From Octopus vulgaris (taxonomy: Eukaryota), in assembly GCA_951406725.2 (NCBI GenBank), contig OX597818.1, positions 112,282,001 through 112,346,000 of the forward strand: a DNA stretch of 64,000 nucleotides, written 5' to 3'. The notes beneath the pieces were generated by a model that saw only the letters and a program-made list of their open reading frames with translations, was not told where the DNA came from and made no database searches. Shown here piece after piece: positions 5,420 to 61,161 of this stretch. A program made the translations under genes and the position numbers. The first letter of the stretch is position 1, and every line of letters begins with the position of its first letter.

Positions 5420-5425
<6 letters not shown>

Positions 5426-6514
5426 ATATTTCGGAATGGTCATATTGCCAGTTTAGCCAATAAAAACACACGCACTATATACTTGGTGTTATTTTGCTTC
5501 AGTGATATTTATTTTTTACATTAATCTTAATCTTATTTCGGCCAAAGTTCTTTCGTCACACTCCTGTGACCGCATCAGTGGTCCTTTGTTTTCTTTTCAC
5601 TTACTTGTGTCTCTCCTTACTAACCGTCAGCCATTTTGTATTTCTATTGTATGTCTTCATTTGCGCATGTTTATATCTCTATGTGCGTCTATGTTTATTT
5701 AGTGTGTGTGTGTGGGGGGATGCCTGTAATATTTGTATCTTCTGGTTATATACATTCTTGTAATTTGTATTTTGTTTTTGTTGTTGTTGCTTTTGTTCTA
5801 ATTTTGTTCATGTGTTTACATCCACCCATTATTATCATTACATATGCTTGTATGTATGTATAACAACAATATTAGTAATAATAATAATAAATCTAATCGA
5901 AAAAAAAAAAGAATATACATATACATATATATATATACATACATATACATATACATATATATATATATACATATATACACACATATATACACATATACAT
6001 ATACATATATATACACATATACATATATATAGATATTCATTTCTATTTCTTTAATTGCCTGTGTATTTATTATGTTTGCAGGATCCACTATTGTCATATG
6101 TTGTGGTGTGCGCTATTGCTCCATTCTAGTTTTCTATTCAGGCTAGGTTTATTTTCTATTATATGTGTAGCTTCTGTAATTTGTCTAATTGTTGCATCTG
6201 TTCTATGTGTGGACAATATCTCAATCTCTATGTTATTGATTGATCCCCCGTGTTCTTGTTCGGCGTGTTGGTACAGAATCGATGAGCTTTTACCTTCCTT
6301 GAGTTGTCTCCAATGTTCATTCACCCGCTCACCAATGCTTCTTGCAGTTTCCCCTACGTATGTTACTGTCTTCTTACTGCATCGTCCCTCTATAATCTTA
6401 TACTATAGACCACATTTCTGGCTTTACAGTTCGTTTGTGGGCTAAATCTACATACAGTGCAATAGTTATCCGTACAGAGAGTTCTACTAAAAGGATAGCT
6501 TCTACCAATTATAG
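5420..6514 (-). mobile_element. Inverted 3' copy of a Penelope-like element (GIY-YIG C-terminus plus 3' pLTR)
   Basis: Reverse complement of about 7138-8233. ORF 6094-6324(-) is nearly identical to the C-terminus of 6616-7557. Abuts (TA)n. Confidence 0.92.
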
Positions 6515-7557
6515 CTAACTCCATCCACCAGAGTATTAAGGTCACAATAGACTACCCCACTAAACACCCCAACCATAGACTGCCAGTACTAGACACTGAA
6601 CTCTGGCTAGAAATTGTGAAAAATAAAAATAAAACCCAAATCCTTCATTCATACTATGCAAAACCTATGGCCTCAAAATACCTGATCCACCGGAACTCAG
6701 CCATTGCGGGCAATGCCAAATTCAATATTTTGATGGCAGACCTCGTCAGAATAATGAGAAATGTGTCACGCATGTGCGAGCCTACAGAATTAAAGAGACA
6801 CATACAGTATTTCATTCACCGCATGCAGTTCTCAGGTTACAGCCATAAAGAAAGGATCAGAGTATACAAAGGAGCCATGAAGAAATTTGATAATATATTA
6901 TGTAATGATAGGAATGGGATTTGCCCACTCTATAGGAACAAGTCATGGAACACTATAGAAAGGACAAAAAAGAAAATAGGGAAGGCCAACTCTTGGTATG
7001 ATAGTCATAAATACCAGAGTGTCATGTTCGTTGACACCACCCCTGGAGGTGAACTAGCGTACCGCTTTAGAAGGACCCTAGATAAACTTAAACTAAGAAT
7101 TAAGGTGGTTGAAAAGCCAGGCAACCCTATCAGATCTATAATTGGTAGAAGCTATCCTTTTAGTAGAACTCTCAGTACGGATAACTATTGCACTGTATGT
7201 AGATTTAGCCCACAAGCGAACTGTAAAGCCAGAAATGTGGTCTATAGTATAAGATGTATAGAGGGACGATGCAGTAACAAGACAGTAACATACGTAGGGG
7301 AAACTGCAAGAAGCATTGGTGAGCGGGTGAATGAACATTGGAGACAACTCAAGGAAGGTAAAAGCTCATCGATTCTGTACCAACACGCCGAACAAGAACA
7401 CGGGGGATCAATCAATAACATAGAGATTAAGATATTGTCCACACATAGAACAGATGCAACAATTAGACAAATTACAGAAGCTACACATATAATAGAAAAT
7501 AAACCTAGCCTGAATAGAAAACTAGAATGGAGCAATAGCGCACACCACAACATATGA
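6511..7557 (+). CDS. PLE polyprotein C-terminal part: RT end/thumb plus GIY-YIG endonuclease (open frame, 5'-truncated)
   Basis: Frame is open from 6511 through ORF 6616-7557. NVVYSIRC...YVGETARSIGERVNEH...RQITEATHI..NKPSLN is a GIY-YIG signature, preceded by a CTVC/C linker. Confidence 0.9.
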   Translation: MANSIHQSIKVTIDYPTKHPNHRLPVLDTELWLEIVKNKNKTQILHSYYAKPMASKYLIHRNSAIAGNAKFNILMADLVRIMRNVSRMCEPTELKRHIQYFIHRMQFSGYSHKERIRVYKGAMKKFDNILCNDRNGICPLYRNKSWNTIERTKKKIGKANSWYDSHKYQSVMFVDTTPGGELAYRFRRTLDKLKLRIKVVEKPGNPIRSIIGRSYPFSRTLSTDNYCTVCRFSPQANCKARNVVYSIRCIEGRCSNKTVTYVGETARSIGERVNEHWRQLKEGKSSSILYQHAEQEHGGSINNIEIKILSTHRTDATIRQITEATHIIENKPSLNRKLEWSNSAHHNI

Positions 7558-8067
7558 CAATAGTGGATCCTTCAAACATAATAAATACACAGGTAATTAA
7601 AGAAATAGAAATGAATATCTATATATATGTATATGTGTATATATATGTATATGTATATGTGTATATATGTGTGTATATATGTATATATATATATATGTAT
7701 ATGTATATGTATGTATATATATATATGTATATGTATATTCTTTTTTTTTTTTTCGATTAGATTTATTATTATTATTACTAATATTGTTGTTATACATACA
7801 TACAAGCATATGTAATGATAATAATGGGTGAATGTAAACACATGAACAAAATTAGAACAAAAGCAACAACAACAAAAACAAAATACAAATTACAAGAATG
7901 TATATAACCAGAAGATACAAATATTACAGGCATCCCCCCCACACACACACTAAATAAACATAGACGCACATAGAGATATAAACATGCGCAAATGAAGACA
8001 TACAATAGAAATACAAAATGGCTGACGGTTAGTAAGGAGAGACACAAGTAAGTGAGAAGAAAACAAA

Positions 8068-8112
8068 GGACCACTGATGCGGTCACAGGAGTGTGACGAA
8101 AGAACTTTGGCC
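8068..8112 (+). ncRNA. Variant hammerhead-like motif in the PLE 3' pLTR
   Basis: ggacca-CTGATGC-g-GTCAC aggagt GTGAC-GAAA-gaactt-tggcc. A9 is replaced by C and stem III is non-standard. The motif is identical in all three PLE copies. Confidence 0.35.
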
Positions 8113-8287
8113 GAAATAAGATTAAGATTAATGTAAAAAATAAATATCACTGAAGCAAAATAACACTAAATATATAGTGCGTGTGTTTTTATTGGCTAAA
8201 CTGGCAATATGACCATTCCGAAATATAACAATATCTGTTTCAACACACGACTTCACATAAAAAATCTTGCACAACAAATATTTAAAC

Positions 8288-8332
<45 letters not shown>

Positions 8333-19305: not shown

Positions 19306-19746
<441 letters not shown>

Positions 19747-20883
19747 AGCATCATACTCAGTAACAAAACAGGCAAAGGAATATCTAAGTGAATTCCGAAT
19801 ACAACAAATTTCAGAATTAGAGATAGACATACAAGAAACAGGCACAGAAAAGGCTAAGCGCATGAAAACCCATGCTAAATCTGCGGCCTTAGATATTCTG
19901 AATGATAAATGGCAAGAAAAACCTCTCTATGGCAAATACCCAAAGAGAGCAAATAATGCAGATGTTGACAAAGCCCTGACCCATCAATGGCTAATGGCCT
20001 CTGGCTTAAAATCTGAAACAGAGGGGTTTATCATAGCAGCTCAAGATCAATGCCTACCAACAAGAAACTACCAGGCCAACATATTAAAGATCAGAAGCAG
20101 TCCAACGTGTCGTGTATGCCAGCAACAAAATGAAACCATTGACCATGTGGAGTCTTCTAGCGCCTACAGGGTATCTCAACAGACACGATAGAGCTGCACA
20201 ATATATTCACTGGGTAATCTGCAAAAACCTGGATTTGCCCCATGAAAAAAACTGGTGGGAACACAAACCACCCCCAGTGCTTGAAAATGACCACATTTCA
20301 CTCCTCTGGAACTTCACCATTCAAACTGACAGAAAGATAGATGCAAATAGGCCAGACATCATATTGAAAGACTTCAAACAAAGAACATGCCTCCTCATTA
20401 ATATGACTGTCCCAATCGATATAAACGTATCTGTCAATATAGACCTACCAAAAACTGAGCAAATATAAAGATCTTGAAATAGAAATCAGCAAAATGTGGA
20501 ACCTGAAGACTAAAACAATACCTGTTGTCATAGGTGCCCTGGGAATGATATCAAAAGGGGCTGATAGCTACCTAACTCAGATACCAGGAAACCCCAAAAT
20601 GGCAGAAATTCAAAAGATAGTGCTCATGGGACCTGCTCATATCCTACGCAAAATACTTTCTATGTAATCTTAAGGTTTAAAACAAACATAATTTTCGGTT
20701 TAAAAAAAAAAAAAATTTTTTTTTTTAGACATTCATTAGTACAACACCAAAAATCCCCCCCCCCCCCAAACATATGGCACACTAGGCATAACAACAACGT
20801 GAACTTCCAACCTGTTGTCTCTTGAGGTCTCTGGGTGAGACTTGGAGTCAACTTGTACAAATATAAAGCAAAACTCAAACATA

Positions 20884-20884
<1 letters not shown>
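19747..20884 (+). mobile_element. 5'-truncated Dong/R4-clade non-LTR retrotransposon (subfamily A), frameshifted
   Basis: WQEKPLYGKY, LKSETEGFIIAAQDQ, CRVC..ETIDH zinc knuckle, RHD and ANRPDI restriction-like endonuclease motifs. The 3' end runs into (TAA)n. Confidence 0.9.
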
Positions 20885-20946
<62 letters not shown>

Positions 20947-20964
20947 TAATAATAATAATGATAA

Positions 20965-21835
20965 TAAAAAGCTATGAAGCAAATGAAATCCAAACTAAAA
21001 CTAGAACAGCAAAGGACCATGATAAAACGATGGCAAGAAAAGTCCCTTCATGGCAAATACTGGACTAAACTAAGTGCAAAAGAACTAGACAAAGAAAAAT
21101 CCCAGCAATGCTTGAGAAGCTCAGGACTCAAAGCAGAGACAGAGGGATTTTGAATTGCAGCACAAGACCAAAGCCTCCCCACCAGAAATTACCAAAAACA
21201 TATAATGAAAAGAAATATAACAAGTAACTGCAGAATATGTGGAGATGGACAAGAAACAATAAATCATGTTATCTATGGCTGCCCAGTCCTGGCTAAGAAG
21301 GAATATATTCACAGACACGACAGAGTTGGGACCTACATACACTGGAAGCTATGCCAACATTATGGAATAACAACAGAAAAAAGATGGTATAGGCACACAC
21401 CAGAAAAGGTCACAGAAAACGAGAAAGCAACCATACTCTTGGATATTCCAATACACAGAAATAGAGAAATTAAAGCCAACAGGCCAGATATAGTTGTGAG
21501 AGATCATGAAGAAAACAAAACGCTTTCTAATTGATGTATCACTACCAGCAGATGACAACGTGTCTCTAAAAGAAATGGAGAAACTTTCAAAATACAAGTA
21601 CCTGGAAATAGAGGTAACAGGAATGTGGAATCTAAAAACAGAAACAATTCCTATCATAGTAGGTGCATTAGGAATGATGAAAAAATATTCAGACAAGTAC
21701 ATAACAAATACATCAGGACTTACAAACACATGTAACATACAGAAAATTGCACTACTGGGCACTGTACACATCCTACGCAGAACACTTTCAATACAGTAAC
21801 CATAACAGCATCACAACAAATCACATCTTATACCA

Positions 21836-21836
<1 letters not shown>
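20965..21836 (+). mobile_element. 5'-truncated Dong/R4 LINE (subfamily B), defective
   Basis: CRICGDGQETINH..C, HRHDRV, KANRPDIVV, KEMEKLSKY motifs; flanked by (TAA)n on both sides. Confidence 0.9.
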
Positions 21837-21891
<55 letters not shown>

Positions 21892-22308
21892 TAATAATAA
21901 TAATAATAATAATAAGAGTCGATGAAGGAACGAGGATGCGTTTTCTGCATTGGACCACTGATGAAGACATAGAACCACAGATGGTGAAACGTATGAAATT
22001 ATTAGATGATTATTAGGAAGTAATACAAATTTGATTTTTTGGTTTATATTTACGTTGCATTTCTTTAATTTGATTGCTTTTATAGACTAGTTTTAATTTG
22101 GTTGCTCTTATAATTACTGGAGCACACAAAACAATTGATTAAATAAGCAACTGTCTTCGTTGCTTAAGTTCAGAAACCTGAAACATGAGACAGAAATAGT
22201 ACAGCTTTGTAAAGTAACGTAACAAACCATTACAATGGTTTTAAGAATCAAGACGACCATCAGCTTAGAAGAGGGTTCAAGTTAGATCAACATTATTTTG
22301 TTGTCCGT

Positions 22309-22925
22309 AAGGCGGCGAACTGGTAGAATCGTCAGCACGCCAGGCGAAATAAGTTCAAATTCCGCTGAGGTCGACTTTGACTTTATCCTGAAGTATCAGT
22401 TGCGTACTGGGGTCGATCTAATCGACTGGACCCCTCCCCCAAGTTTGCAGACCTTGTGCCTATAGCAGAAAAGATTACTTTAAGCCGGCGAGCCGACAGA
22501 AACGTTAGTACGCCGGGCGAAATGCTTAGCGTTATTTCGTCTGTTTTTACGTTCTGAGTTCAAATGCTACTGAGGTCGACTTTGCCTTCCTTTTGGAGTA
22601 GAAAGATTAAATACAATTTGCGTACAGGATTTGATCTAATCGACTGGTCCTCTCCCCCAAAATTTCGTTCCCTGTGCCTAGAGTAGAAAAGAATATTTTA
22701 TTGACCTTGATTATAATAATCCTTTGTATTATAGGCAGAAGGCCTGAACTTTGTGGGAGTGGGTTAGTCGACTCCATCGAACGCTTTGCTAGTACTCATT
22801 TTATCAACTCCGAAGGATGAAAAGTAAAATTGGCCTCAGTGGAATTTGAACTCAGAACGTTAAAACGGACGCGATGCCGCAAAAGATTTGCCTGACAAGC
22901 TAACGATTCTTCCAGCACACCGCAT
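22309..22925. mobile_element. Cluster of three SINE family 2 copies (22309-22475 plus, 22482-22697 plus, 22717-22925 minus)
   Basis: Each has the ggcggcgag..gaggtcgactttg core or its reverse complement. Confidence 0.8.
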
Positions 22926-23634
22926 TTACCATATTTATAAAATTATACCGAAAGTCAAAAAATTTTATATGAAATTTGTCAGACTTATTTAATAGGGTGA
23001 CAAATGCAATAAACATGAGAAATGCGTCGATCACGAGATGGCCACAAGTTTGCTGACGTCATATTTCTGAAGGAAGAAACAAAGTCCATGGGACGACAAA
23101 ATAAATTGAACATGACAAATATATAAAAAAAATTAAACGTTAGGCATTGCTAATGAAATCCATTCTGAATTGTTTCCCAATCTTCCAGCGATCAATGCAT
23201 CGATTACAGGAACAAAGACATCCAAACACCAGATGTCTGTGACAACAATGACAGATAAAAAAAGAACAGATAAGAACAAAGCAAATATTCAGCCGTTCAG
23301 GCGACAAAATACACGGAATAATTCTATGAAGATACGTGATGCTGCTAGAAATAATTACCTAATTCCTTCAAATTACAACATATCCAATTAAAGAAGGAAG
23401 AAAAAATTAGATGGTGTAGTCCATGAAGGTTTAGTTCTGAAATAAACGACACGGTGTTCCACATAGGAATCTTATAATTATATTTCTGCTTAGGAAAAGT
23501 GTAATTTGTGGTTACATGAGAGAAGTTTCACATGTGATAATGGCTAGAAGTTTTGACACTAAGTTTGAAGGGAATGAGAGCTGCAATTCACTCCATGATA
23601 ATGCAAAATTAGAAAGTATTACGTTTAATATCGG

Positions 23635-23842
23635 TTTAAAATGTTGACACAAAACCGGCAAATATGGCGGAGGGGTAAGATGACTATGTCGAACTCAATG
23701 CACAATTAGTAGATATTTTAAAGACTCCGAAAGGATGAAAGGCAAAGTCAACCTTGGCGAAATTTCAACTCTGAATCTGAAGATGGTCCAAATGCCGCTA
23801 AGAATTTTGACAGATGTAGTAATAACTTAGCTAACTTGCGGA
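23635..23842 (-). mobile_element. Degenerate SINE family 2
   Basis: ccgaaaggatgaaaggcaaagtcaaccttggcgaaatttcaactc. Confidence 0.7.
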
Positions 23843-23849
23843 CTTAAAA

Positions 23850-26258
<2,409 letters not shown>

Positions 26259-29643: not shown

Positions 29644-29878
29644 TATATAATAGAAATATTAAAATTACTAAGTCTCTCTAAAGGAGATTACGGCAGTCTT
29701 ACTGGATATTAATAGTTATCGCCAAACTAATATGGCAGTCCATAAATATAAGACTAAAGCTGTCGCTAATTACCTCCAAGAGGCCATCGCCTCTAGCTAG
29801 CTATATGACACAGGAACCTGCGTCCATTACAACCTTCGAACAGGGGAGGTCAGCCGCTTCACCTTACTGGTCAGACAT

Positions 29879-29919
29879 CTGCGGACATGTTTCAGGGTTG
29901 TTGCCCTTTATCAATTCAG
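29879..29919 (-). ncRNA. Hammerhead ribozyme, U3-A8 variant (stem I mutated in this copy)
   Basis: Minus strand reads ctgaa-TTGATAA-AGGG caacaa CCCT-GAAA-CATG-TC-cgcag. Confidence 0.6.
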
Positions 29920-30425
29920 CGTAGTCAGACCCAGCAAGTAAATAAAATCTTCGAACAGACGGTCGGTAGCGACAACCCTGAAACATGTCTGCAGATGTCT
30001 GACCAGCAAGGTGAAGCGGCTGTTCGAAGGTTGTAATGGACGCAGGTTCGTGTGTCATATAGCTAGCTAGAGGCGATGGCCTCTTGGAGCTAATCAGCGA
30101 CATCTTTAGTCTTATATTTATGGACTTCCATATTAGTTTGGCGATAACTATTAATATCCAGTAACGCTGCCGTAATCACCTTTAGAGAGACTTAGTAATT
30201 TTAATATTTCTATTATTGAAAACAAGTGGATGTATTCCACTGTAACTAGGTAAATAAAATCTTCGAACAGACGGTCGGTAGCGACACCTGCGTGTTTTTG
30301 TTTTGAAGAAAGGTGTTTTTGTTTTTTGGTGACGGATATTTCTGATTACGTTATTGTTGTGTCGCGGTTGTGAGATCGAATTCGTTGGTGGAAGCGGTTG
30401 CGGCGTTGGGAATTTTTTCTCAAAA

Positions 30426-31995
30426 ATGCAAACCCAAACGTATGCGGGAGCGGCGAGCAAGGGCCTGGCTGCGAGCGAACTACAGTTGGAAGAAGTTATA
30501 GTCGAGAAGGAGATTTTGAAGAATTATTTCGACAGCTTGAAGAGAGAAGGTGATTGTGTGAGGGTCACACCATCTGAAGAAGAAGCGAAAAACACAGAGA
30601 AACGTATCATAACATACAGAACGTGGAGCGTGGCTTCAAAGAAAATAGAAGTGGCACCGATAGAGGAAATTGAGTGCTGTCTGGATGAAATTGAAGGAAA
30701 AGCTACCTACTACAACAGGGGCAGAAAATTTGCAACAGTGGTCGTGCATTTTAAAAACGAAGACGAAGCGAAAAGGAATGCACCGAAAAGTTTGAAAACC
30801 GAAAGATGGATATTATTACCAAGTTATTGCGGGAAAAGGGCAGTAAGGATACGAATAAGTAAGATTTAGCCGGAGCTGAATATGGAAAGGATTTTAGCGG
30901 CAGTGGTATTCAACTGCAAAGAAAACGTGGAAATATTGAAAGCGGAAAGGTGAAAAGAAGTAAAGTGGAGGGGTTATGCGGTGCAGGCATTAGTCCACAT
31001 TACCATGCCTGACCTGTACAACGTCCCGGAGGAGTTGGTGTTCCCCGACGAAACACGTCTCAGAGTCGTGGTGGAGGGGAGACCCCCTGTGTGTTATAAA
31101 TGTAAAATTAGAGGCCACATGAAGGATGTGTGTCCGGAAAAAAGAGTACAGGAGGAGAAGATAACATTGGAGGCTCGGACGGAGGAGCGGCAAATGACGG
31201 ATGTGGAGGAGGAATGTGAGAATGCAGAGGATGTGGAAAGTGGTGAAGTGTTGGAGAAAGAAAAGGAAAGAACAGAAGAGAGAAAGAGAACGAGGGTGGA
31301 ATCACCACTTAAAGTTCAAAAAAAGAAAAAAAACCAAAGGGAAGAAAAATACGAAATGGAAGATCGAACGTGCGAAGATAAGGAAGCAAAAGAAAAAGAG
31401 AAAGAACAGACAGGCCAAGAATGGGAAACAAGAGTGAAAGAGCAGTTGGAAGCATGTAAAGAGGGAAGAAGACCCGAAGGAAAAAATCTTAAAGCAGTAA
31501 TATTGTATATGAAAAACAAAGAAATCGAAAAGAAGCTGGCAGGTAAGAAAGGTTTAATCAGAGTTAAGTTGAACCCAGAAATATTTGGTGACCAAGTGAA
31601 GTCAGCGGTAGTAGAGAAAGGCGGCGAGCTGGCAGAAACGTTAGCACGCCGGATGAAATGCTTAGCGGTATTTCGTCTGTCGTTACGTTGTGAGTTCAAA
31701 TTCCGCCGAGGTTGACTTTGCCTTTCATCCTTTCGGGGTCGATAAATTAAGTACCAGTTCCGCACTGGGGTCGATGTAATCGACTTAATACCTATGTCTG
31801 TCCTTGTTTGTCCCCTTTATGTTTAGCCCCTTGTGGGTAATAAAGAAATAGGTAGTAGAGAAAGAGACATTTTACAAATTGAGAGATATGTTTTTCGGTG
31901 TATATGAAATGCAATATATACGTTACGACACTTTGCCGGCTGTTATAAACCAGATGGATTTAATAGATTACGTTACAGATGAGCGCCCGAAGTAG
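30426..31995 (+). pseudogene. L1/Tx1-type ORF1 (Gag-like, CCHC zinc knuckle), about 441 aa when reconstructed; two in-frame stops and a SINE insertion
   Basis: MQTQTYAGAA start and VVVEGRPPVCYKCKIRGHMKDVC (CX2CX4HX4C). One frame runs across TAG 30867 and TGA 30951; removing 31621-31864 restores the frame to TAG 31993-31995. Confidence 0.8.
31621..31850 (+). mobile_element. Young SINE family 2 copy with 14-bp TSD
   Basis: ggtagtagagaaag at 31607-31620 and 31851-31864; tRNA-like head with B-box gagttcaaattcc. Confidence 0.95.
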
Positions 31996-32233
31996 CAGAA
32001 TTGTATACGAAATTGTAAAATTGTAAAAACTGTATTTTAAATGAAACTGCGAGTTTTGGGGGGCTCGTAAGCCGTTCCATCTAATTCATTATAAATATTC
32101 ATTTTCACCTCATATTTTTCGATTTTTTCAAATTTATGTACCCCACGTCCTGTTTTGTAATGTCCCCTCTTAATTCAGGCCTTAGTGCCTATAATAAAGA
32201 TTTCGGTAGCGACACCTGCTGGGTCTGACTACG

Positions 32234-32274
32234 CTGCATTGATAAAGGGCAACGACCCTGAAATATGTCTGTAG
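32234..32274 (+). ncRNA. Minimal type I hammerhead ribozyme, U3-A8 variant
   Basis: CTGCA-TTGATAA-AGGG caacga CCCT-GAAA-tATG-TC-TGTAG; 5-bp stem I, 4-bp stem II, GUC site. Confidence 0.7.
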
Positions 32275-32485
32275 ATGTCTGTCCAGCAAGGTGAAGCGTT
32301 TGACCTCCCCTGTTCGAAGGTTGTAATGGACGCAGGTTCGTGTGTCATATAGCTAGCTAGAGGCGATGGCCTCTTGGAGCTAATCAGCGATAGCTTTAGT
32401 CTTATATTTATGGACTGCCATATTAGTTTGGCGATAACTATTAATATATATATATATACTTATATATTTATATACATATATTTAT

Positions 32486-51017: not shown

Positions 51018-52486
51018 CAGTTGCGGCTAAAATGTTCAGAACGGCATTGTTTTCGTCAGAAAAGTAGGAATAATTTTTTTATCAAAATTGTTTTATATTC
51101 TGTAATTTTCACAGACAATAACTACGATATTATTTGTTATTGTCTGAGATTTTGGTGTAATTTGAGAGGATAATACAAAAGTTATGGATGATTTAGTGAT
51201 TTACTGCAAAACCCATAGCGGCCAAAATGATCAGAACGGTTGCTTTTACTCCGTGTTTTAGTATATTTAACCGGCGAACTCTAATGTTTTGAATTTGTTT
51301 ACGTGACGGTTCATTTACTAAACACGCCGTAAGAATATCTGTAGTGTACTTTGTTAATATAATGCCACTTACTCCGTTACCAATACGTCAGCAGATTATT
51401 AAGCTTCGAAAGAAGGATAATTTAAGCATTGGGTCTATTGCAAAGATTGTTAACAAGTCAAAGTGTTGTTCACGGTATTCTTAAGGTCTACGATGATTGT
51501 GGTTCGTGTGAAGCAAGAAAGTCCACAGGTAGGCCAAGAAAAACGACCAAGAGAGAAGATCGTGCTATGGTAAAGTTGGTTATAAAGGTTAGATTTAAAA
51601 CTGCTGCTGCTGTTTCTCGGGAAATGAGCATTGTACGGAAGAAACATTTATCGCGAAAAACTGTGTCTCGTCGTTTAGTTGAACATGACCTACAAGCAAG
51701 AGCACCTGCAGTGAAGCCACTGATCAGCTCCAAGAATAAAAAATGTCGTCTTACCTTTGCAACCGAACATGTGTTGTGGTCTCAAGAAAAATGGCAAACG
51801 GTGCATTTCAGTGATGAATCTAAGTCTATGTTATTTGGCTCAGATGGGAAAAGCAGGTGAAAAATTGTCGCCTAAATGCCTTAAGACTAATGTTAAATTC
51901 GGTGGAGGAAGTGTCATGGTTTGGGGGATGATATCTGGAGATGTTGTGGGCTCTTTGCTGCGATTACATGGAAAGGTAAATGCAGGAGTTTATAAACAAC
52001 TTGTAAAATATCATGTCTTGCCTGTGCTGAGAAATTCAACTAAGCGACCACCCATATTCATGCAGGACAATGCCCCATGTCACAAAGCTAAGGCGGTCAT
52101 GAACTTCCTCAAGGCTGAAAAGGTTATTTTTATGGATTGGCTTGCTCAAAGCTATTGAAAACATGTGCTGGAGTCGGAAAGACAACATCCAGGTCTCCTG
52201 GAGAACGTCCGAAAGCCAGAAATCCTAAAACAACCGAGCAATTATGAAATACCCTTCAGGAAGAATGGAATAAGATCACCTAGAAAGAAATTGAAAATTT
52301 AATTTCCCCATGCAGTCCAAAATGTCAAACTTTAATTGAAGCTAAAGGGCTTCACACTAAATATGAAATAATTCCAGCATTCTCTGTCATTTTTGATTTT
52401 TTTTGTTATTTTTTTCAACCGTTCTGATCATTTTGACCACCATGGGTTTTGCAGTAAATCACTATATCATCCATAACTTTGTATTA
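51018..52486 (+). mobile_element. Tc1-family DNA transposon of IR/DR type, defective, right TIR truncated
   Basis: TA|CAGTTG left end; direct-repeat motif gcggc(t/c)aaaatg(t/a)tcagaacgg at about 51023 and 51218; 51171-51242 is inverted at 52416-52486. Confidence 0.88.
51362..52365 (+). pseudogene. Tc1 DDE transposase pseudogene
   Basis: GRPRKTT, FSDESK, VKFGGGSVMVWG, MQDNAPCH, IENM and GLHTKY motifs, with several frameshifts and deletions. Confidence 0.9.
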
Positions 52487-52589
52487 ACGACAGCATTAAG
52501 CAACATTGGTAAGGAGTATTTTAAGGGAACTTTTGGCCAGCTGCTGATTACATGAATGATGACTTCCTTAGAAATGAAAAAATCCAGCA

Positions 52590-52670
52590 AAGGTGTGGCC
52601 GTGCGGTAAGACGCTTGCTTCCCAATAACATGGTTCTGGGTTCAGTCGGACTGTGTGCTACGTTGGCCTG
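52590..52670 (+). mobile_element. SINE family 1 head fragment
   Basis: ggtgtggccgtgcggtaagacgcttgcttccc..ggttctgggttcagtc. Confidence 0.65.
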
Positions 52671-52679
52671 GTCTATTCA

Positions 52680-53777
52680 GAAATCAAGGCTGCATCATCT
52701 GGGAAATGCTTTCCTTTCAAAAACAACTTCATGGCTGGGAAGAGGTGAAAATCAGAGGGTGCAAGGTCAGGAGAGTAGGGGGATGTGGGTGGAGTTCATA
52801 GCCGCATGCCTGTGCTTCTGATCTGGAGACAAGCGAGTTGTGGACCGGAGCGTTGTCCAGCAGGAGGAGGATGCCTTTGCTGATCTTGCCCCGCCTCTTG
52901 ATTTTGATAGCTTCTCTTAATTTCCTCAAAAGTGAAGCATAATAGGCTCCTGCAATTGTGGTACCCTTTGCCAGGCAAATCTGTCATCACTACACCGTCC
53001 TGGTCCCAGAAGACTGTGAGCATGACCTTGCCAGCGGAGGGCTGCACTCTTGCCTTCTTTGGAGGAGGTGAGTCACGGTGCTTCCACTGCATTGACTGGG
53101 CTTTGGTATCTGGATCATAGTGATGGACCCAGGTTTCATCCTGTGTAATCAGTCTTTTGAAAAATTTTGACTCATCTTCTTGGCACATCTCCAAATTCAT
53201 CCTTGTGCACTAGACGCGTTCTTGCTTCTGGAAAGGTGTGAGCAGCCTGGAAATCCATCTTGCAGACACCTTTTGCATATCCAAATGGTCATGAATGATA
53301 GTTTCCACAGACCCGGTACTAATCTTGACCTCATGGGCTATTTGGCGAATAGTTATGCGTCGATCTTCCAAAATGGCAGCCTCAACTTGACGGACAGATG
53401 CCTCATCAATGCCAGAAGTGGGGCGACCAGATCTGGGAGCTGTTTCCACAGAGTTCCGACCATGTTTAAATTCACGATGCCAGCGTTTTACAAGGTCATA
53501 TGATGGGGCATCATCACCATAAGTTACTTTCATTTCATCAAAAGTCTTCCGTGGTGTACGTCCTTTTAAATACAAAACCCGGATCACTGCTCGACACTCA
53601 ACAGGCTCCATTTCATACCTGACTCAGTTCAAACACCTGTAAATCAGAAACCGCAATTAGTCCAGAGCTGTAATTTGCCACGTAATCTATAGAGATATAA
53701 ATAATTGCACATGTAAAATTTCAGCTAGATCAAATAATTGCAAGTGGGTCAGGAGCATTACTTATTGAACGTCCCTC

Positions 53778-56220: not shown

Positions 56221-56260
<40 letters not shown>

Positions 56261-56262
<2 letters not shown>

Positions 56263-56798
56263 GTTTAAATATTAGTTGTGCAAGATTTTTTATGTGAAGT
56301 CGTGTGTTGAAACAGATATTGTTATATTTCGGAATGGTCATATTGCCAGTTTAGCCAATAAAAACACACGCACTATACATTTGGTGTTATTTTGCTTCAG
56401 TGATATTTATTTTTTACATTAATCTTAATCTTATTTCGGCCAAAGTTCTTTCGTCACACTCCTGTGACCGCATCAGTGGTCCTTTGTTTTCTTCTCACTT
56501 ACTTGTGTCTCTCCTTACTAACCGTCAGCCATTTTGTATTTCTATTGTATGTCTTCATTTGCGCATGCTTATATCTCTATGTGCGTCTATGTTTATTTAG
56601 TGTGTGTGTGGGGGGATGCCTGTAATATTTGTATCTTCTGGTTATATACATTCTTGTAATTTGTATTTTGTTTTTGTTGTTGTTGCTTTTGTTCTAACTT
56701 TGTTCATGTGTTTACATCCACCCATTATTATCATTACATATGCTTGTATGTATGTATAACAACAATATTAGTAATAATAATAATAAATCTAATCGAAA

Positions 56799-56847
<49 letters not shown>

Positions 56848-57580
56848 TATACATACACATACATATATATATGTATATAAACATATACACACATATATAC
56901 ATATATACATATACATATATACACATATATATACACATATACACACACACATATACACACATATACACACATATACACACATACATATATATAGTTATTC
57001 ATTTCTATTTCTTTAATTATCTGTGTATTTATTATGTTTGCAGGATCCACTATCGTCATATGTTGTGGTGTGTGCTATTGCTCCATTCTAGTTTTCTATT
57101 CAGGCTAGGTTTATTTTCTATTATCTGTGTAGCTTCTGTAATTTGTCTAATTGTTGCATCTGTTCTATGTGTGGACAATATCTTAATCTCTATGTTATTG
57201 ATTAATCCCCCGTGTTCTTGTTCGGCGTGTTGGTACAGAATCGATGAGCTTTTACCTTCTTGAGTTGTCTCCAATGTTCATTCACCCGCTCTCCAATGCT
57301 TCTTGCTGTTTCCCCTACGTATGTTACTGTCTTGTTACTGCATCGTCCCTCTATACATCGTATACTATAGACCACATTTCTGGCTTTACAGTTTGTTTGT
57401 GGGCTAAATCTACATACAGTGCAATAGTTATCCGTACAGAGAGTTCTACTAAAAGGATAGGTTCTACCAATTATAGATCTGATAGGGTTGCCTGGCTTTT
57501 CAACAACCTTAATTCTTAGTTTAAGTTTATCTAGGGTCCTTCTAAAGCGGTACGCCAGTTCACCTCCAGGGGTGGTGTCA
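56261..57580 (-). mobile_element. Third copy of the 6511-8289 Penelope-like family (5'-truncated, 1-bp frameshift in GIY-YIG)
   Basis: Reverse complement of about 7032-8289; same 3' terminus at (TA)n. Confidence 0.93.
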
Positions 57581-57698
57581 TGTTCGTTGACACACACTAA
57601 ATAAACATAGAGGCACATAGAGATATAAGCATGCGCAAATGAAGACATACAATAGAAATACAAAATGGCTGACGGTTAGTAAGGAGACGGTTAGTAAG
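57577..57698 (+). other. Junction filler made of re-inverted PLE pieces
   Basis: gtcatgttcgttgacac (=7021-7037), then acactaaataaac...aaggaga (about 7946-8040), then duplicated cggttagtaag. Confidence 0.85.
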
Positions 57699-57826
57699 AA
57701 TCGGCGGCTTATATTTATTTGCTGCCGATAAATTTGGCGCGAGTGCGATGATTTGAAAATTTTAGGTCAGATATTGCCGAGGCAGGGACGGAAATGCCTC
57801 GTGAAAATATCTGTTCCGTTCTGGCT

Positions 57827-57933
57827 ATTTCTTACTGAGGAATCTAAGGGCCTATGGAAGATTGGCTTGATTTAATTTAATCAGGTTAGTTTACCATTAA
57901 ACAGTAGATGAAACGGTGCATCATATAAGAAAT
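57827..57933 (+). ncRNA. Type I hammerhead, unit 1 (G16.2A variant)
   Basis: Same as unit 2 except tcatata, which breaks the C15.2-G16.2 pair. Confidence 0.65.
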
Positions 57934-58316
57934 TACAGGGTAAATGTTTTTTTAATTTTCTCCTGGTTTACGGATTTAATGTTATTTTGCGGTTAAAGCT
58001 TTGGCTGTTATTTCTAGTGGGTGAATGGCCTATTATGGCCGTTCCTTGATTGTGATGTTGAACTTAGAAATGGTCTATGACTGTTTAATTTTTTCCCACT
58101 AGGCCGCTGGTGGCAAAAAAATTCTACAAAATTTTTTTTGCCACCCTATATTGATTAATTATGAATTTTCTGGTTGATTCCGTAATGGAATCGGCGGCTT
58201 ATATTTATTTGCTGCCGATAAATTTGGCGCGAGTGCGATGATTTGAAAATTTTAGGTCAGATATTGCCGAGGCAGGGACGGAAATGCCTCGTGAAAATAT
58301 CTGTTCCGTTCTGGCT

Positions 58317-58423
58317 ATTTCTTACTGAGGAATCTAAGGGCCTATGGAAGATTGGCTTGATTTAATTGAATCAGGTTAGTTTACCATTAAACAGTAGATG
58401 AAACGGTGCATCGTATAAGAAAT
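58317..58423 (+). ncRNA. Type I hammerhead ribozyme, unit 2
   Basis: ATTTCTTA-CTGAGGA-ATCTA[58 nt]TAGAT-GAAA-CGG tgca TCG-TA^TAAGAAAT; predicted cut after 58415. Confidence 0.85.
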
Positions 58424-58806
58424 TACAGGGTAAATGTTTTTTTAATTTTCTCCTGGTTTACGGATTTAATGTTATTTTGCGGTTAAAGCTTTGGCTGTTA
58501 TTTCTAGTGGGTGAATGGCCTATTATGGCCGTTCCTTGATTGTGATGTTGAACTTAGAAATGGTCTATGACTGTTTAATTTTTTCCCACTAGGCCGCTGG
58601 TGGCAAAAAAATTCTACAAAATTTTTTTGGCCACCCTATATTGATTAATTATGAATTTTCTGGTTGATTCCGTAATGGAATCGGCGGCTTATATTTATTT
58701 GCTGCCGATAAATTTGGCGCGAGTGCGATGATTTGAAAATTTTAGGTCAGATATTGCCGAGGCAGGGACGGAAATGCCTCGTGAAAATATCTGTTCCGTT
58801 CTGGCT

Positions 58807-58913
58807 ATTTCTTACTGAGGAATCTAAGGGCCTATGGAAGATTGGCTTGATTTAATTGAATCAGGTTAGTTTACCATTAAACAGTAGATGAAACGGTGCA
58901 TCGTATAAGAAAT
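58807..58913 (+). ncRNA. Type I hammerhead ribozyme, unit 3
   Basis: Identical core; predicted cut after 58905. Confidence 0.85.
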
Positions 58914-59297
58914 TACAGGGTAAATGTTTTTTTAATTTTCTCCTGGTTTACGGAATTAATGTTATTTTGCGGTTAAAGCTTTGGCTGTTATTTCTAGTGG
59001 GTGAATGGCCTATTATGGCCGTTCCTTGATTGTGATGTTGAACTTAGAAATGGTCTATGACTATTTAATTTTTTCCCACTAGGCCGCTGGTGGCAAAAAA
59101 ATTCTACAAAATTTTTTTTTGCCACCCTATATTGATTAATTATGAATTTTGTGGTTGATTCCGTAATGGAATCGGCGGCTTATATTTATTTGCTGCCGAT
59201 AAATTTGGCGCGAGTGCGATGATTTGAAAATTTTAGGTCAGATATTGCCGAGGCAGGGACGGAAATGCCTCGTGAAAATATCTGTTCCGTTCTGGCT

Positions 59298-59404
59298 ATT
59301 TCTTACTGAGGAATCTAAGGGCCTATGGAAGATTGGCTTGATTTAATTTAATCAGGTTAGTTTACCATTAAACAGTAGATGAAACGGTGCATCGTATAAG
59401 AAAT
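59298..59404 (+). ncRNA. Type I hammerhead ribozyme, unit 4
   Basis: Identical core; predicted cut after 59396. Confidence 0.85.
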
Positions 59405-59787
59405 TACAGGGTAAATGTTTTTTTAATTTTCTCCTGATTTACGGATTTAATGTTATTTTGCGGTTAAAGCTTTGGCTGTTATTTCTAGTGGGTGAATGGC
59501 CTATTATGGCCGTTCCTTGATTGTGATGTTGAACTTAGAAATGGTCTATGACTATTTAATTTTTTCCCACTAGGCCGCTGGTGGCAAAAAAATTCTACAA
59601 AATTTTTTTTGCCACCCTATATTGATTAATTATGAATTTTCTGGTTGATTCCGTAATGGAATCGGCGGCTTATATTTATTTGCTGCCGATAAATTTGGCG
59701 CGAGTGCGATGATTTGAAAATTTTAGGTCAGATATTGCCGAGGCAGGGACGGAAATGCCTCGTGAAAATATCTGTTCCGTTCTGGCT

Positions 59788-59894
59788 ATTTCTTACTGAG
59801 GAATCTAAGGGCCTATGGAAGATTGGCTTGATTTAATTGAATCAGGTTAGTTTACCATTAAACAGTAGATGAAACGGTGCATCGTATAAGAAAT
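59788..59894 (+). ncRNA. Type I hammerhead ribozyme, unit 5
   Basis: Identical core; predicted cut after 59886. Confidence 0.85.
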
Positions 59895-60278
59895 TACAGG
59901 GTAAATGTTTTTTTAATTTTCTCCTGGTTTACGGATTTAATGTTATTTTGCGGTTAAAGCTTTGGCTGTTATTTCTAGTGGGTGAATGGCCTATTATGGC
60001 CGTTCCTTGATTGTGATGTTGAACTTAGAAATGGTCTATGACTATTTAATTTTTTCCCACTAGGCCGCTGGTGGCAAAAAAATTCTACAAAATTTTTTTT
60101 TGCCACCCTATATTGATTAATTATGAATTTTCTGGTTGATTCCGTAATGGAATCGGCGGCTTATATTTATTTGCTGCCGATAAATTTGGCGCGAGTGCGA
60201 TGATTTGAAAATTTTAGGTCAGATATTGCCGAGGCAGGGACGGAAATGCCTCGTGAAAATATCTGTTCCGTTCTGGCT

Positions 60279-60385
60279 ATTTCTTACTGAGGAATCTAAG
60301 GGCCTATGGAAGATTGGCTTGATTTAATTTAATCAGGTTAGTTTACCATTAAACAGTAGATGAAACGGTGCATCGTATAAGAAAT
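60279..60385 (+). ncRNA. Type I hammerhead ribozyme, unit 6
   Basis: Identical core; predicted cut after 60377. Confidence 0.85.
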
Positions 60386-60769
60386 TACAGGGTAAATGTT
60401 TTTTTAATTTTCTCCTGGTTTACGGAATTAATGTTATTTTGCGGTTAAAGCTTTGGCTGTTATTTCTAGTGGGTGAATGGCCTATTATGGCCGTTCCTTG
60501 ATTGTGATGTTGAACTTAGAAATGGTATATGACTATTTAATTTTTTCCCACTAGGCCGCTGGTGGCAAAAAAATTCTACAAAATTTTTTTTTGCCACCCT
60601 ATATTGATTAATTATGAATTTTCTGGTTGATTCCGTAATGGAATCGGCGGCTTATATTTATTTGCTGCCGATAAATTTGGCGCGAGTGCGATGATTTGAA
60701 AATTTTAGGTCAGATATTGCCGAGGCAGGGACGGAAATGCCTCGTGAAAATATCTGTTCCGTTCTGGCT

Positions 60770-60876
60770 ATTTCTTACTGAGGAATCTAAGGGCCTATGG
60801 AAGATTGGCTTGATTTAATTGAATCAGGTTAGTTTACCATTAAACAGTAGATGAAACGGTGCATCGTATAAGAAAT
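60770..60876 (+). ncRNA. Type I hammerhead ribozyme, unit 7
   Basis: Identical core; predicted cut after 60868. Confidence 0.85.
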
Positions 60877-61099
60877 TACAGGGTAAATGTTTTTTTAATT
60901 TTCTCCTGGTTTACGGAATTAATGTTATTTTGCGGTTAAAGCTTTGGCTGTTATTTCTAGTGGGTGAATGGCCTATTATGGCCGTTCCTTGATTGTGATG
61001 TTGAACTTAGAAATGGTATATGACTATTTAATTTTTTCCCACTAGGCCGCTGGTGGCAAAAAAATTCTACAAAATTTTTTTTTTGCCACCCTATATTGA

Positions 61100-61161
<62 letters not shown>

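Follow-up and report, generated by a model that had tools for sequence, protein, structure and literature searches.

A 64,000-nucleotide stretch of the Octopus vulgaris genome (contig OX597818.1 of assembly GCA_951406725.2, positions 112,282,001 to 112,346,000 of the forward strand; hereafter the window, whose own numbering is used for coordinates) carries part of a Penelope-like element (PLE) that abuts, in back-to-back orientation, a tandemly arrayed 490-bp hammerhead ribozyme repeat, which we call RZ-A. Comparison with further copies of both elements across the genome shows that each occupies (TA)n tracts as outward-facing twins with two fixed 3' ends, a footprint which argues that RZ-A is very probably mobilised by PLE-type machinery. 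The fused locus itself is best explained, at a rough probability of 0.55, by two insertions into one (TA)n followed by loss of the inner arms. An earlier note on the window had read the locus as one composite event, in which the PLE reverse transcriptase (RT) switched template from its own RNA to the 490-nt RNA, and which identified this PLE as the specific autonomous partner; the fusion is weaker evidence than was claimed there, and the family-wide footprint is stronger.

A shared integration footprint

To describe the footprint we fetched 39 other RZ-A arrays and 38 PLE stretches, then 36 and 44 more loci from contig 1 (individual loci are given below as L numbers). The two fixed ends lie at about unit positions 359 (short) and 465 (long) in RZ-A, and at about positions 440 (short) and 495 (long) of the untranslated region (UTR) in the PLE. 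When only twins with both ends beside (TA)n are scored, 50 of 51 RZ-A twins (the last has one odd end) and 44 of 44 PLE twins (8 of these rows being copies of one insertion) combine a long with a short end, and long+long twins number zero. The contig-1 loci were anchored on long ends and are hence blind to short+short pairs; in the RZ-A set chosen regardless of ends, all 28 twins are long+short. Exact end patterns over positions 1–196 Mb of contig 1 (n = 262; 44 long and 32 short ends for RZ-A, 86 long and 100 short for the PLE) gave 37 and 8 outward long+short pairs and no outward pair of the same type. A second hammerhead repeat of 359 bp, RZ-B, follows the same pattern at 22 of 23 two-arm loci, as judged from match coordinates alone, with one left undetermined. 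The tails that separate the two ends measure about 55 nt in the PLE, 106 in RZ-A and 49 in RZ-B.

Two fixed ends, outward twins in (TA)n and a tail at one end together mean that RZ-A inserts with the full PLE signature, so that the earlier suggestion of a retrozyme moved by PLE machinery now stands on firmer ground than the single locus could give it. The long+short rule suggests one RNA with two sites, one used per strand, and the use of different start sites by the two arms of a twin, seen in 94 of 95 cases, suggests that the sites are coupled on a single RNA. Under such a scheme, the PLE protein would nick the (TA)n tract on both strands and start reverse transcription of a single RNA at two fixed internal positions, each strand using one of them; microhomology repair would then join the two 5'-truncated cDNAs head to head, and an outward twin with a short end and a long end would result. 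As a circle or an uncut multimer, RZ-A RNA would bear the same two-site signal and be copied in trans likewise; that the enzyme is the PLE's and that it works as a dimer is what we infer from this pattern. In L1 twin priming, cDNA is primed at both flanks, which leaves an inverted 5' part and a central microhomology join. The octopus elements differ from it in two ways: cDNA starts at a fixed internal site on either side and, at the focal locus, the arms come from different elements.

The RZ-A unit is 490/491 bp long, has a GC content of 37% and lacks any open reading frame (ORF) of 120 aa. By motif and fold it contains a type I hammerhead with an 8-bp stem I, CUGAGGA, an unusually long stem II, GAAA, a palindromic loop 3 and GUA, whose folding energy (z = -3.5) was reached by none of 200 shuffles. 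The GAAA is invariant over the aligned copies (0 of 988 bases changed) and core variation falls mainly at N7, while in unit 1 of the focal array AUA replaces GUA through a private change at 57923. Rfam, in both gathering-score and E-value modes, returned no hammerhead in RZ-A and only microsatellite-driven miRNA matches. The repeat is dispersed, with at least 40 arrays over many contigs among the best candidates and, genome-wide, 700 exact long and 418 exact short ends; no long terminal repeat structure was seen in the 39 loci examined. Taken on sequence features, its assignment as a putative non-LTR retrozyme-type element is supported. Cleavage is predicted after unit position 228, a site read through by 39 of 66 end-picked arms, which suggests that the templates would mostly be circles or uncut multimers. 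In the same end-picked arms, inner ends bunch at unit positions 222–260, by the predicted cut, in 16 of 66 cases (L108–L143, L211–L215; the interval was set post hoc), a bunching that the similarity-picked set lacks (4 of 68); in some cases the template may have been linear RNA after cleavage.

The PLE encodes an RT followed by a GIY-YIG domain (Pfam RVT_1 then GIY-YIG, both weak matches under the curated cut-offs), and a CX4CxxC linker and a CCHH motif were recognised by eye in the translation of L101 from the motif description in PMC8557442. Full copies (L098 and L099) carry direct pseudo-long terminal repeats (pLTRs). By these motifs the element appears to be of the Neptune/Nematis type, with a canonical C-terminal endonuclease (EN+). 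Its protein has 362 homologues, with open frames of up to 1312 aa; one protein 97% identical to it is assigned to Octopus vulgaris by its source. Of 58 matches to a distant relative, 50 are without internal stop; five of the latter were fetched, of which four belong to the main family and one (L188) to a second family with 57% protein identity. The hammerhead-like variant in the PLE UTR has a CUGAUGC core, a 6-bp stem II, GAAA and weak stems I and III, and its fold is not significant (z = -1.2), so that its activity is doubtful. Independent PLE arms in L070, L077, L100 and L184 break alike in the RT region, near position 2850 of the full copy, which is possibly a hot spot of pausing or cutting. 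At least 8 copies of one PLE twin, embedded in a larger repeated sequence, lie on small contigs and close to the end of a contig (L079–L081, L093, L103–L106).

The fused locus and its history

The anatomy of the locus (Table 1) is as first described, each part lying in the order (TA)n, PLE on the minus strand, scraps, array on the plus strand and (TA)n, and the junction alignment bears out that zero host bases separate the PLE half from the array half. The PLE scraps between them total 123 bp. Among the junction microhomologies described earlier, the 4-bp overlap and the duplicated 11-mer (at 57673 and 57688) hold, and the first overlap proves to be 6 bp (gtgtca), not only gtca. The PLE arm is 93% identical to the PLE at 7032–8328, microsatellite included; its ORF end corresponds to the GIY-YIG region, with a 1-bp frameshift (a missing base) near 57258, and its outer terminus at 56262 is the long, tailed end of its family. 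The right terminus of the array is unit position 465, the long end of RZ-A.

Table 1. Features of the fused locus and of an ordinary twin in the window
Feature	Position	Strand	Remark
Left (TA)n target tract	56221-56261	.	preceded by (CA)n run
5'-truncated PLE arm	56262-57580	-	ORF end, internal microsatellite, 3' UTR/pLTR
PLE tail	56262-56316	-	~55 nt, stretch between short and long start sites
Hammerhead-like variant in PLE UTR	56438-56482	-	CUGAUGC core, one conserved base altered
Inverted (sense) PLE ORF scrap	57575-57593	+	19 bp; overlaps arm by 6 bp (gtgtca)
Sense scrap of PLE 3' UTR	57590-57687	+	98 bp, about UTR positions 149-246; 4-bp overlap
Slip-back duplication of 57673-57683	57688-57698	+	11 bp; final base common with array
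RZ-A hammerhead array	57698-61107	+	6.95 tandem 490/491-bp units, 99% match
Type I hammerhead (predicted), unit 2	58317-58423	+	unit positions 130-236; recurs in every unit
Conserved block ahead of short start site, unit 2	58497-58546	+	unit positions 310-359; resembles the corresponding PLE stretch
Right (TA)n target tract	61105-61156	.	
Ordinary twin of the same PLE, for comparison	5421-8288	.	short end left, long end right

The locus thus pairs a PLE long end with an RZ-A long end, a long+long combination, because RZ-A 359 equates to the PLE short site, and it departs from the long+short pairing of primary twins. This departure makes a single composite event doubtful, even though the composite anatomy stands. 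We favour instead a history in which the PLE and RZ-A would have landed successively in one (TA)n or in two adjacent ones, their long arms on the outer sides, and in which the inner part (the remainder of the PLE short arm, the (TA)n common to both and any RZ-A short arm) would have been lost, either when the inner end of the second element was joined or later; the order of events and the deletion are our reconstruction. The 98-bp sense scrap, which matches the reverse complement of the left PLE arm at 97 of 98 bases, would then be the remaining stump of the PLE short arm, or else it is a templated insert. In strand and position it matches the usual start of a short arm (short PLE arms starting within the UTR block are ordinary, 5 of 19), and a loss of about 195 bp plus (TA)n would therefore suffice.

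A deletion that juxtaposed two older insertions was the very case that the earlier note had set against its own reading, and the ingredients it needs occur at measurable rates. One (TA)n can host different elements, as in L108, where an RZ-A twin abuts a PLE twin, and similarly in L074, L208 and L210. Single arms joined to unrelated DNA without (TA)n account for 2 of 35 RZ-A long arms (L111, L127), at least 5 of 49 PLE long arms and 11 of 13 unpaired RZ-B arms (of 40 loci), and in L082 a PLE arm meets an older long interspersed element (LINE) about 90 bp short of its (TA)n. A rough product of these rates (1–2% nested, 5–25% host-joined, about 1000 insertions), resting on small counts, predicts about 0.5 to 5 such loci per genome. 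In human cells, moreover, (TA)n tracts are break-prone and mended by microhomology joining, according to PMC13645644.

Rarity of the fusion was assessed on positions 1–196 Mb of contig 1 together with the fetched loci. The earlier note had proposed counting other loci at which the 490-bp unit adjoins this PLE family; no second PLE/RZ-A fusion was found among the 44 RZ-A and 86 PLE long ends of that interval, which were either fetched or paired from their end patterns (the PLE arm of L148 and that of L169 run beyond the fetched stretch and their partners are unseen), nor in the 39 other RZ-A arrays. Two candidates were rejected: L074, where a few (TA) repeats separate a third hammerhead repeat (RZ-C, L074:3136-3850) from the adjacent PLE arm and the arrangement is hence nested, and L143, an RZ-A/PLE pair 3.3 kb apart on contig 1 that represents two separate insertions.

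Several observations weigh against the two-insertion history. The halves are similarly diverged, with 6 private changes per 1169 bp in the PLE and 10 per 3409 bp in the array (p = 0.26). A single uninterrupted round of synthesis, folding back and slipping back from the end of the PLE cDNA, could account for all three junction switches, and the centres of ordinary twins (L038, L043, L050, L051, L054, L088) hold the same kind of scraps and short duplications as the focal junction; such scraps and slip-back duplications arise in break repair too, as described in PMC11724301 and PMC13645644. No allele with one half alone was seen. Finally, an RZ-B counterpart exists in which a PLE long end and an RZ-B short end are cleanly fused with a 3-bp overlap, and heterologous pairs may accordingly be primary products. 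This counterpart, L070:2730-3438, joins the 359-bp RZ-B back to back with the main PLE and is present in four copies of one insertion (also L071, L075 and L076) that have the PLE breakpoint and a flanking LINE in common. Its long+short ends fit co-priming, yet a two-step origin would yield long+short half the time.

The same observations feed a possible, clearly less probable alternative, a single event with two ribonucleoproteins (RNPs), in which a PLE RNP primed the left flank and an RZ-A RNP the right flank, each at its long site; fold-back synthesis would then have linked the cDNA ends and produced the scraps, unless these arose when the RZ-A cDNA jumped onto PLE RNA for 98 nt. Halves of equal age, a junction signature like that of primary twin centres with no host base between the halves, and the existence of a second hetero-fusion are all in its favour. 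So is the prevalence of long ends among unpaired RZ-B arms, 11 of 13 (L193–L205, mostly joined to unrelated DNA), which hints that the long site is primed first. An event of this kind should, however, also yield long+long twins within one family, and there are 0 among the 95 scored and none in the contig-1 end patterns; the 98-bp scrap, moreover, lies where a short arm would normally start, and on the matching strand.

A broader proposal, more tentative still, is that a PLE dimer primes both (TA)n strands, that several octopus retrozyme families have acquired the two-site signal, and that PLE and retrozyme RNAs can be primed at one and the same break, the focal locus and the L070 group being primary hetero-twins. 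If so, hetero-twins with a 36-nt block found near the RZ-A short end (see below) would name the main PLE family as the driver of RZ-A, and the exact start sites at unit positions 359 and 465 would be available for in vitro work.

The template switch of the earlier note fares far worse, and we regard it as very improbable. Junction microhomologies and the lack of host DNA between the halves speak for it, but a switch from PLE RNA to the 490-nt RNA within one cDNA should give a co-oriented chimera with one primed end, and the halves are oppositely oriented. The outer end of the array is, in addition, the fixed RZ-A start site beside (TA)n, of which the genome holds 700 exact copies. Because the array ends at its own start site and faces away from the PLE, its priming took place at the right flank, separately from that of the PLE half, and its synthesis ran towards the junction and not away from it; a single-cDNA switch would require the RT to read an antisense RZ-A strand and to stop at 465 by chance.

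An assembly artefact that joined two repeats is comparably remote. The junction is known from this assembly alone: a DNA search found the junction stretch covered whole only by the focal locus (40 scored of 2383 candidates), and no bridging piece was present among those listed from four public contig sets, which is uninformative either way; among public runs, no RNA data set was listed as holding the sequence. Three ordered, locus-specific junction switches and a private base change in the scrap speak against it, as do the locus-private variants of the units, which indicate that the array did not arise by collapse of family copies. Three of the unit variants occur in no other array, and no other array shares its order of unit variants, as a source array would. 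These three variants are spread over some units in a non-nested pattern, for which we propose local unequal exchange or conversion after insertion as a likely cause. The single fused locus is a curiosity, unless alleles reveal one-step formation.

Two further outward-facing pairs in the window had been likened to the fused locus. The twin at 5421–8288 was confirmed; at 29650–32445 the ends do face outwards, but the element is not the same kind of twin, being more complex and having an internal ORF. Its two fixed ends lie about 58 nt apart (long left, short right) around the remnant of a zinc-knuckle ORF, a motif scan of it found no hammerhead, and it may be another PLE-driven passenger. The window also contains, at 19625–25620 and 51426–53623, what we take from motifs to be remnants of RTE-like LINEs interrupted by (AAT)n, as well as remnants of two Tc1/mariner-like transposases.

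The candidate driver of RZ-A

Contrary to the earlier claim, the locus does not by itself identify the autonomous partner, since the same PLE is also fused to RZ-B in the L070 group and a second PLE family is present. The genome thus holds at least two PLE families of this clade, and further PLE families are reported in octopus. An indication of the partner comes from the 50 nt upstream of the RZ-A short end, which align over 36 nt with the corresponding place in the PLE (score 26, attained by 1 of 1000 shuffles and 0 of 4000 background windows, and the top of 1978 PLE tiles). This block was first noticed by eye and is one of 12 comparisons, and in the reverse test it ties with a minus-strand site, with 4 of 4000 windows reaching it. 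The 3' region of the second-family copy L188 has a weaker block (score 17, 47 of 1000 shuffles), RZ-B is without such a block, and the RZ-A unit has no BLAST-level homology to the full PLE. The block ahead of the short end is also the most conserved long stretch of RZ-A, with 0.7% change against about 3% in the flanks. Together with the order of the sites from the ribozyme, the shared block equates RZ-A 359 with the PLE short site (440). We therefore consider the main PLE family a somewhat favoured candidate for the driver of RZ-A, held at that level because of the second family. Downstream of the L188 element (L188:1-3424), at a distance of 1.2 kb, the sequence terminates in a tail with homology to that of the main PLE (0 of 500 shuffles), a candidate end of that second family.

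Relation to known elements and significance

In PMC7229834, animal retrozymes are proposed to use PLE enzymes on the grounds of common ribozymes and co-occurrence, and bioRxiv 10.64898/2026.07.22.740005 links retrozymes and PLEs in Xenopus through pLTR homology. RZ-A resembles the animal non-LTR retrozymes described there in being a non-coding, low-GC tandem repeat with a type I hammerhead per unit; its 490-bp unit exceeds the 150–450 bp given in the former source and falls within the 51–972 bp of the latter. It differs from known retrozymes in its very long stem II and in the lack of BLAST-level homology to the PLE pLTR, and from reported ones in that its dispersed arrays form inverted (TA)n twins with two fixed ends. 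We found no report of retrozyme arrays as PLE-tailed inverted twins, or of PLE/retrozyme fusions, in the titles, abstract openings and text passages that the search covered. The twin signature argues for direct retro-insertion of multimers, beyond the local tandem growth proposed in bioRxiv 10.64898/2026.07.22.740005.

The PLE itself has much in common with Neptune/Nematis-type elements as they are set out in PMC8557442, which also records non-autonomous PLE derivatives in Chlamydomonas and treats a tail at one end only as a PLE hallmark. An RT with a C-terminal GIY-YIG, the CX4CxxC linker, the CCHH motif and direct pLTRs are shared, as are an inverted 5'-truncated copy, a tail at one end and a (TA)n target. 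The octopus tail is longer, about 55 nt against the 30–40 nt described in that text, and the one-end rule is near absolute in octopus; its pLTR hammerhead, in contrast to that of the Neptune/Nematis type as given there, is a doubtful variant. For Poseidon PAc of Anolis, PMC11167929 reports that both strands are nicked and extended in AT-rich DNA in vitro, that a dimer is predicted, and that reverse transcription begins beyond the hammerhead, on its downstream side, at two sites within the RNA whose intervening stretch forms the tail. In those in vitro reactions the strands showed no difference in start site, whereas the arms of octopus twins differ in 94 of 95 cases.

The link between animal retrozyme copying and PLEs has so far consisted of co-occurrence and, in frogs, pLTR homology. 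In RZ-A, dozens of loci bear the complete integration footprint of a PLE, together with start sites that are fixed and a block of conserved sequence upstream. The near-absolute long+short rule bears on the chemistry of PLEs, namely on two sites per RNA and one per strand, a point unsettled by in vitro work, and an octopus genome with many open PLE frames, together with the RZ-A footprint, turns retrozyme mobilisation into a defined assay question.

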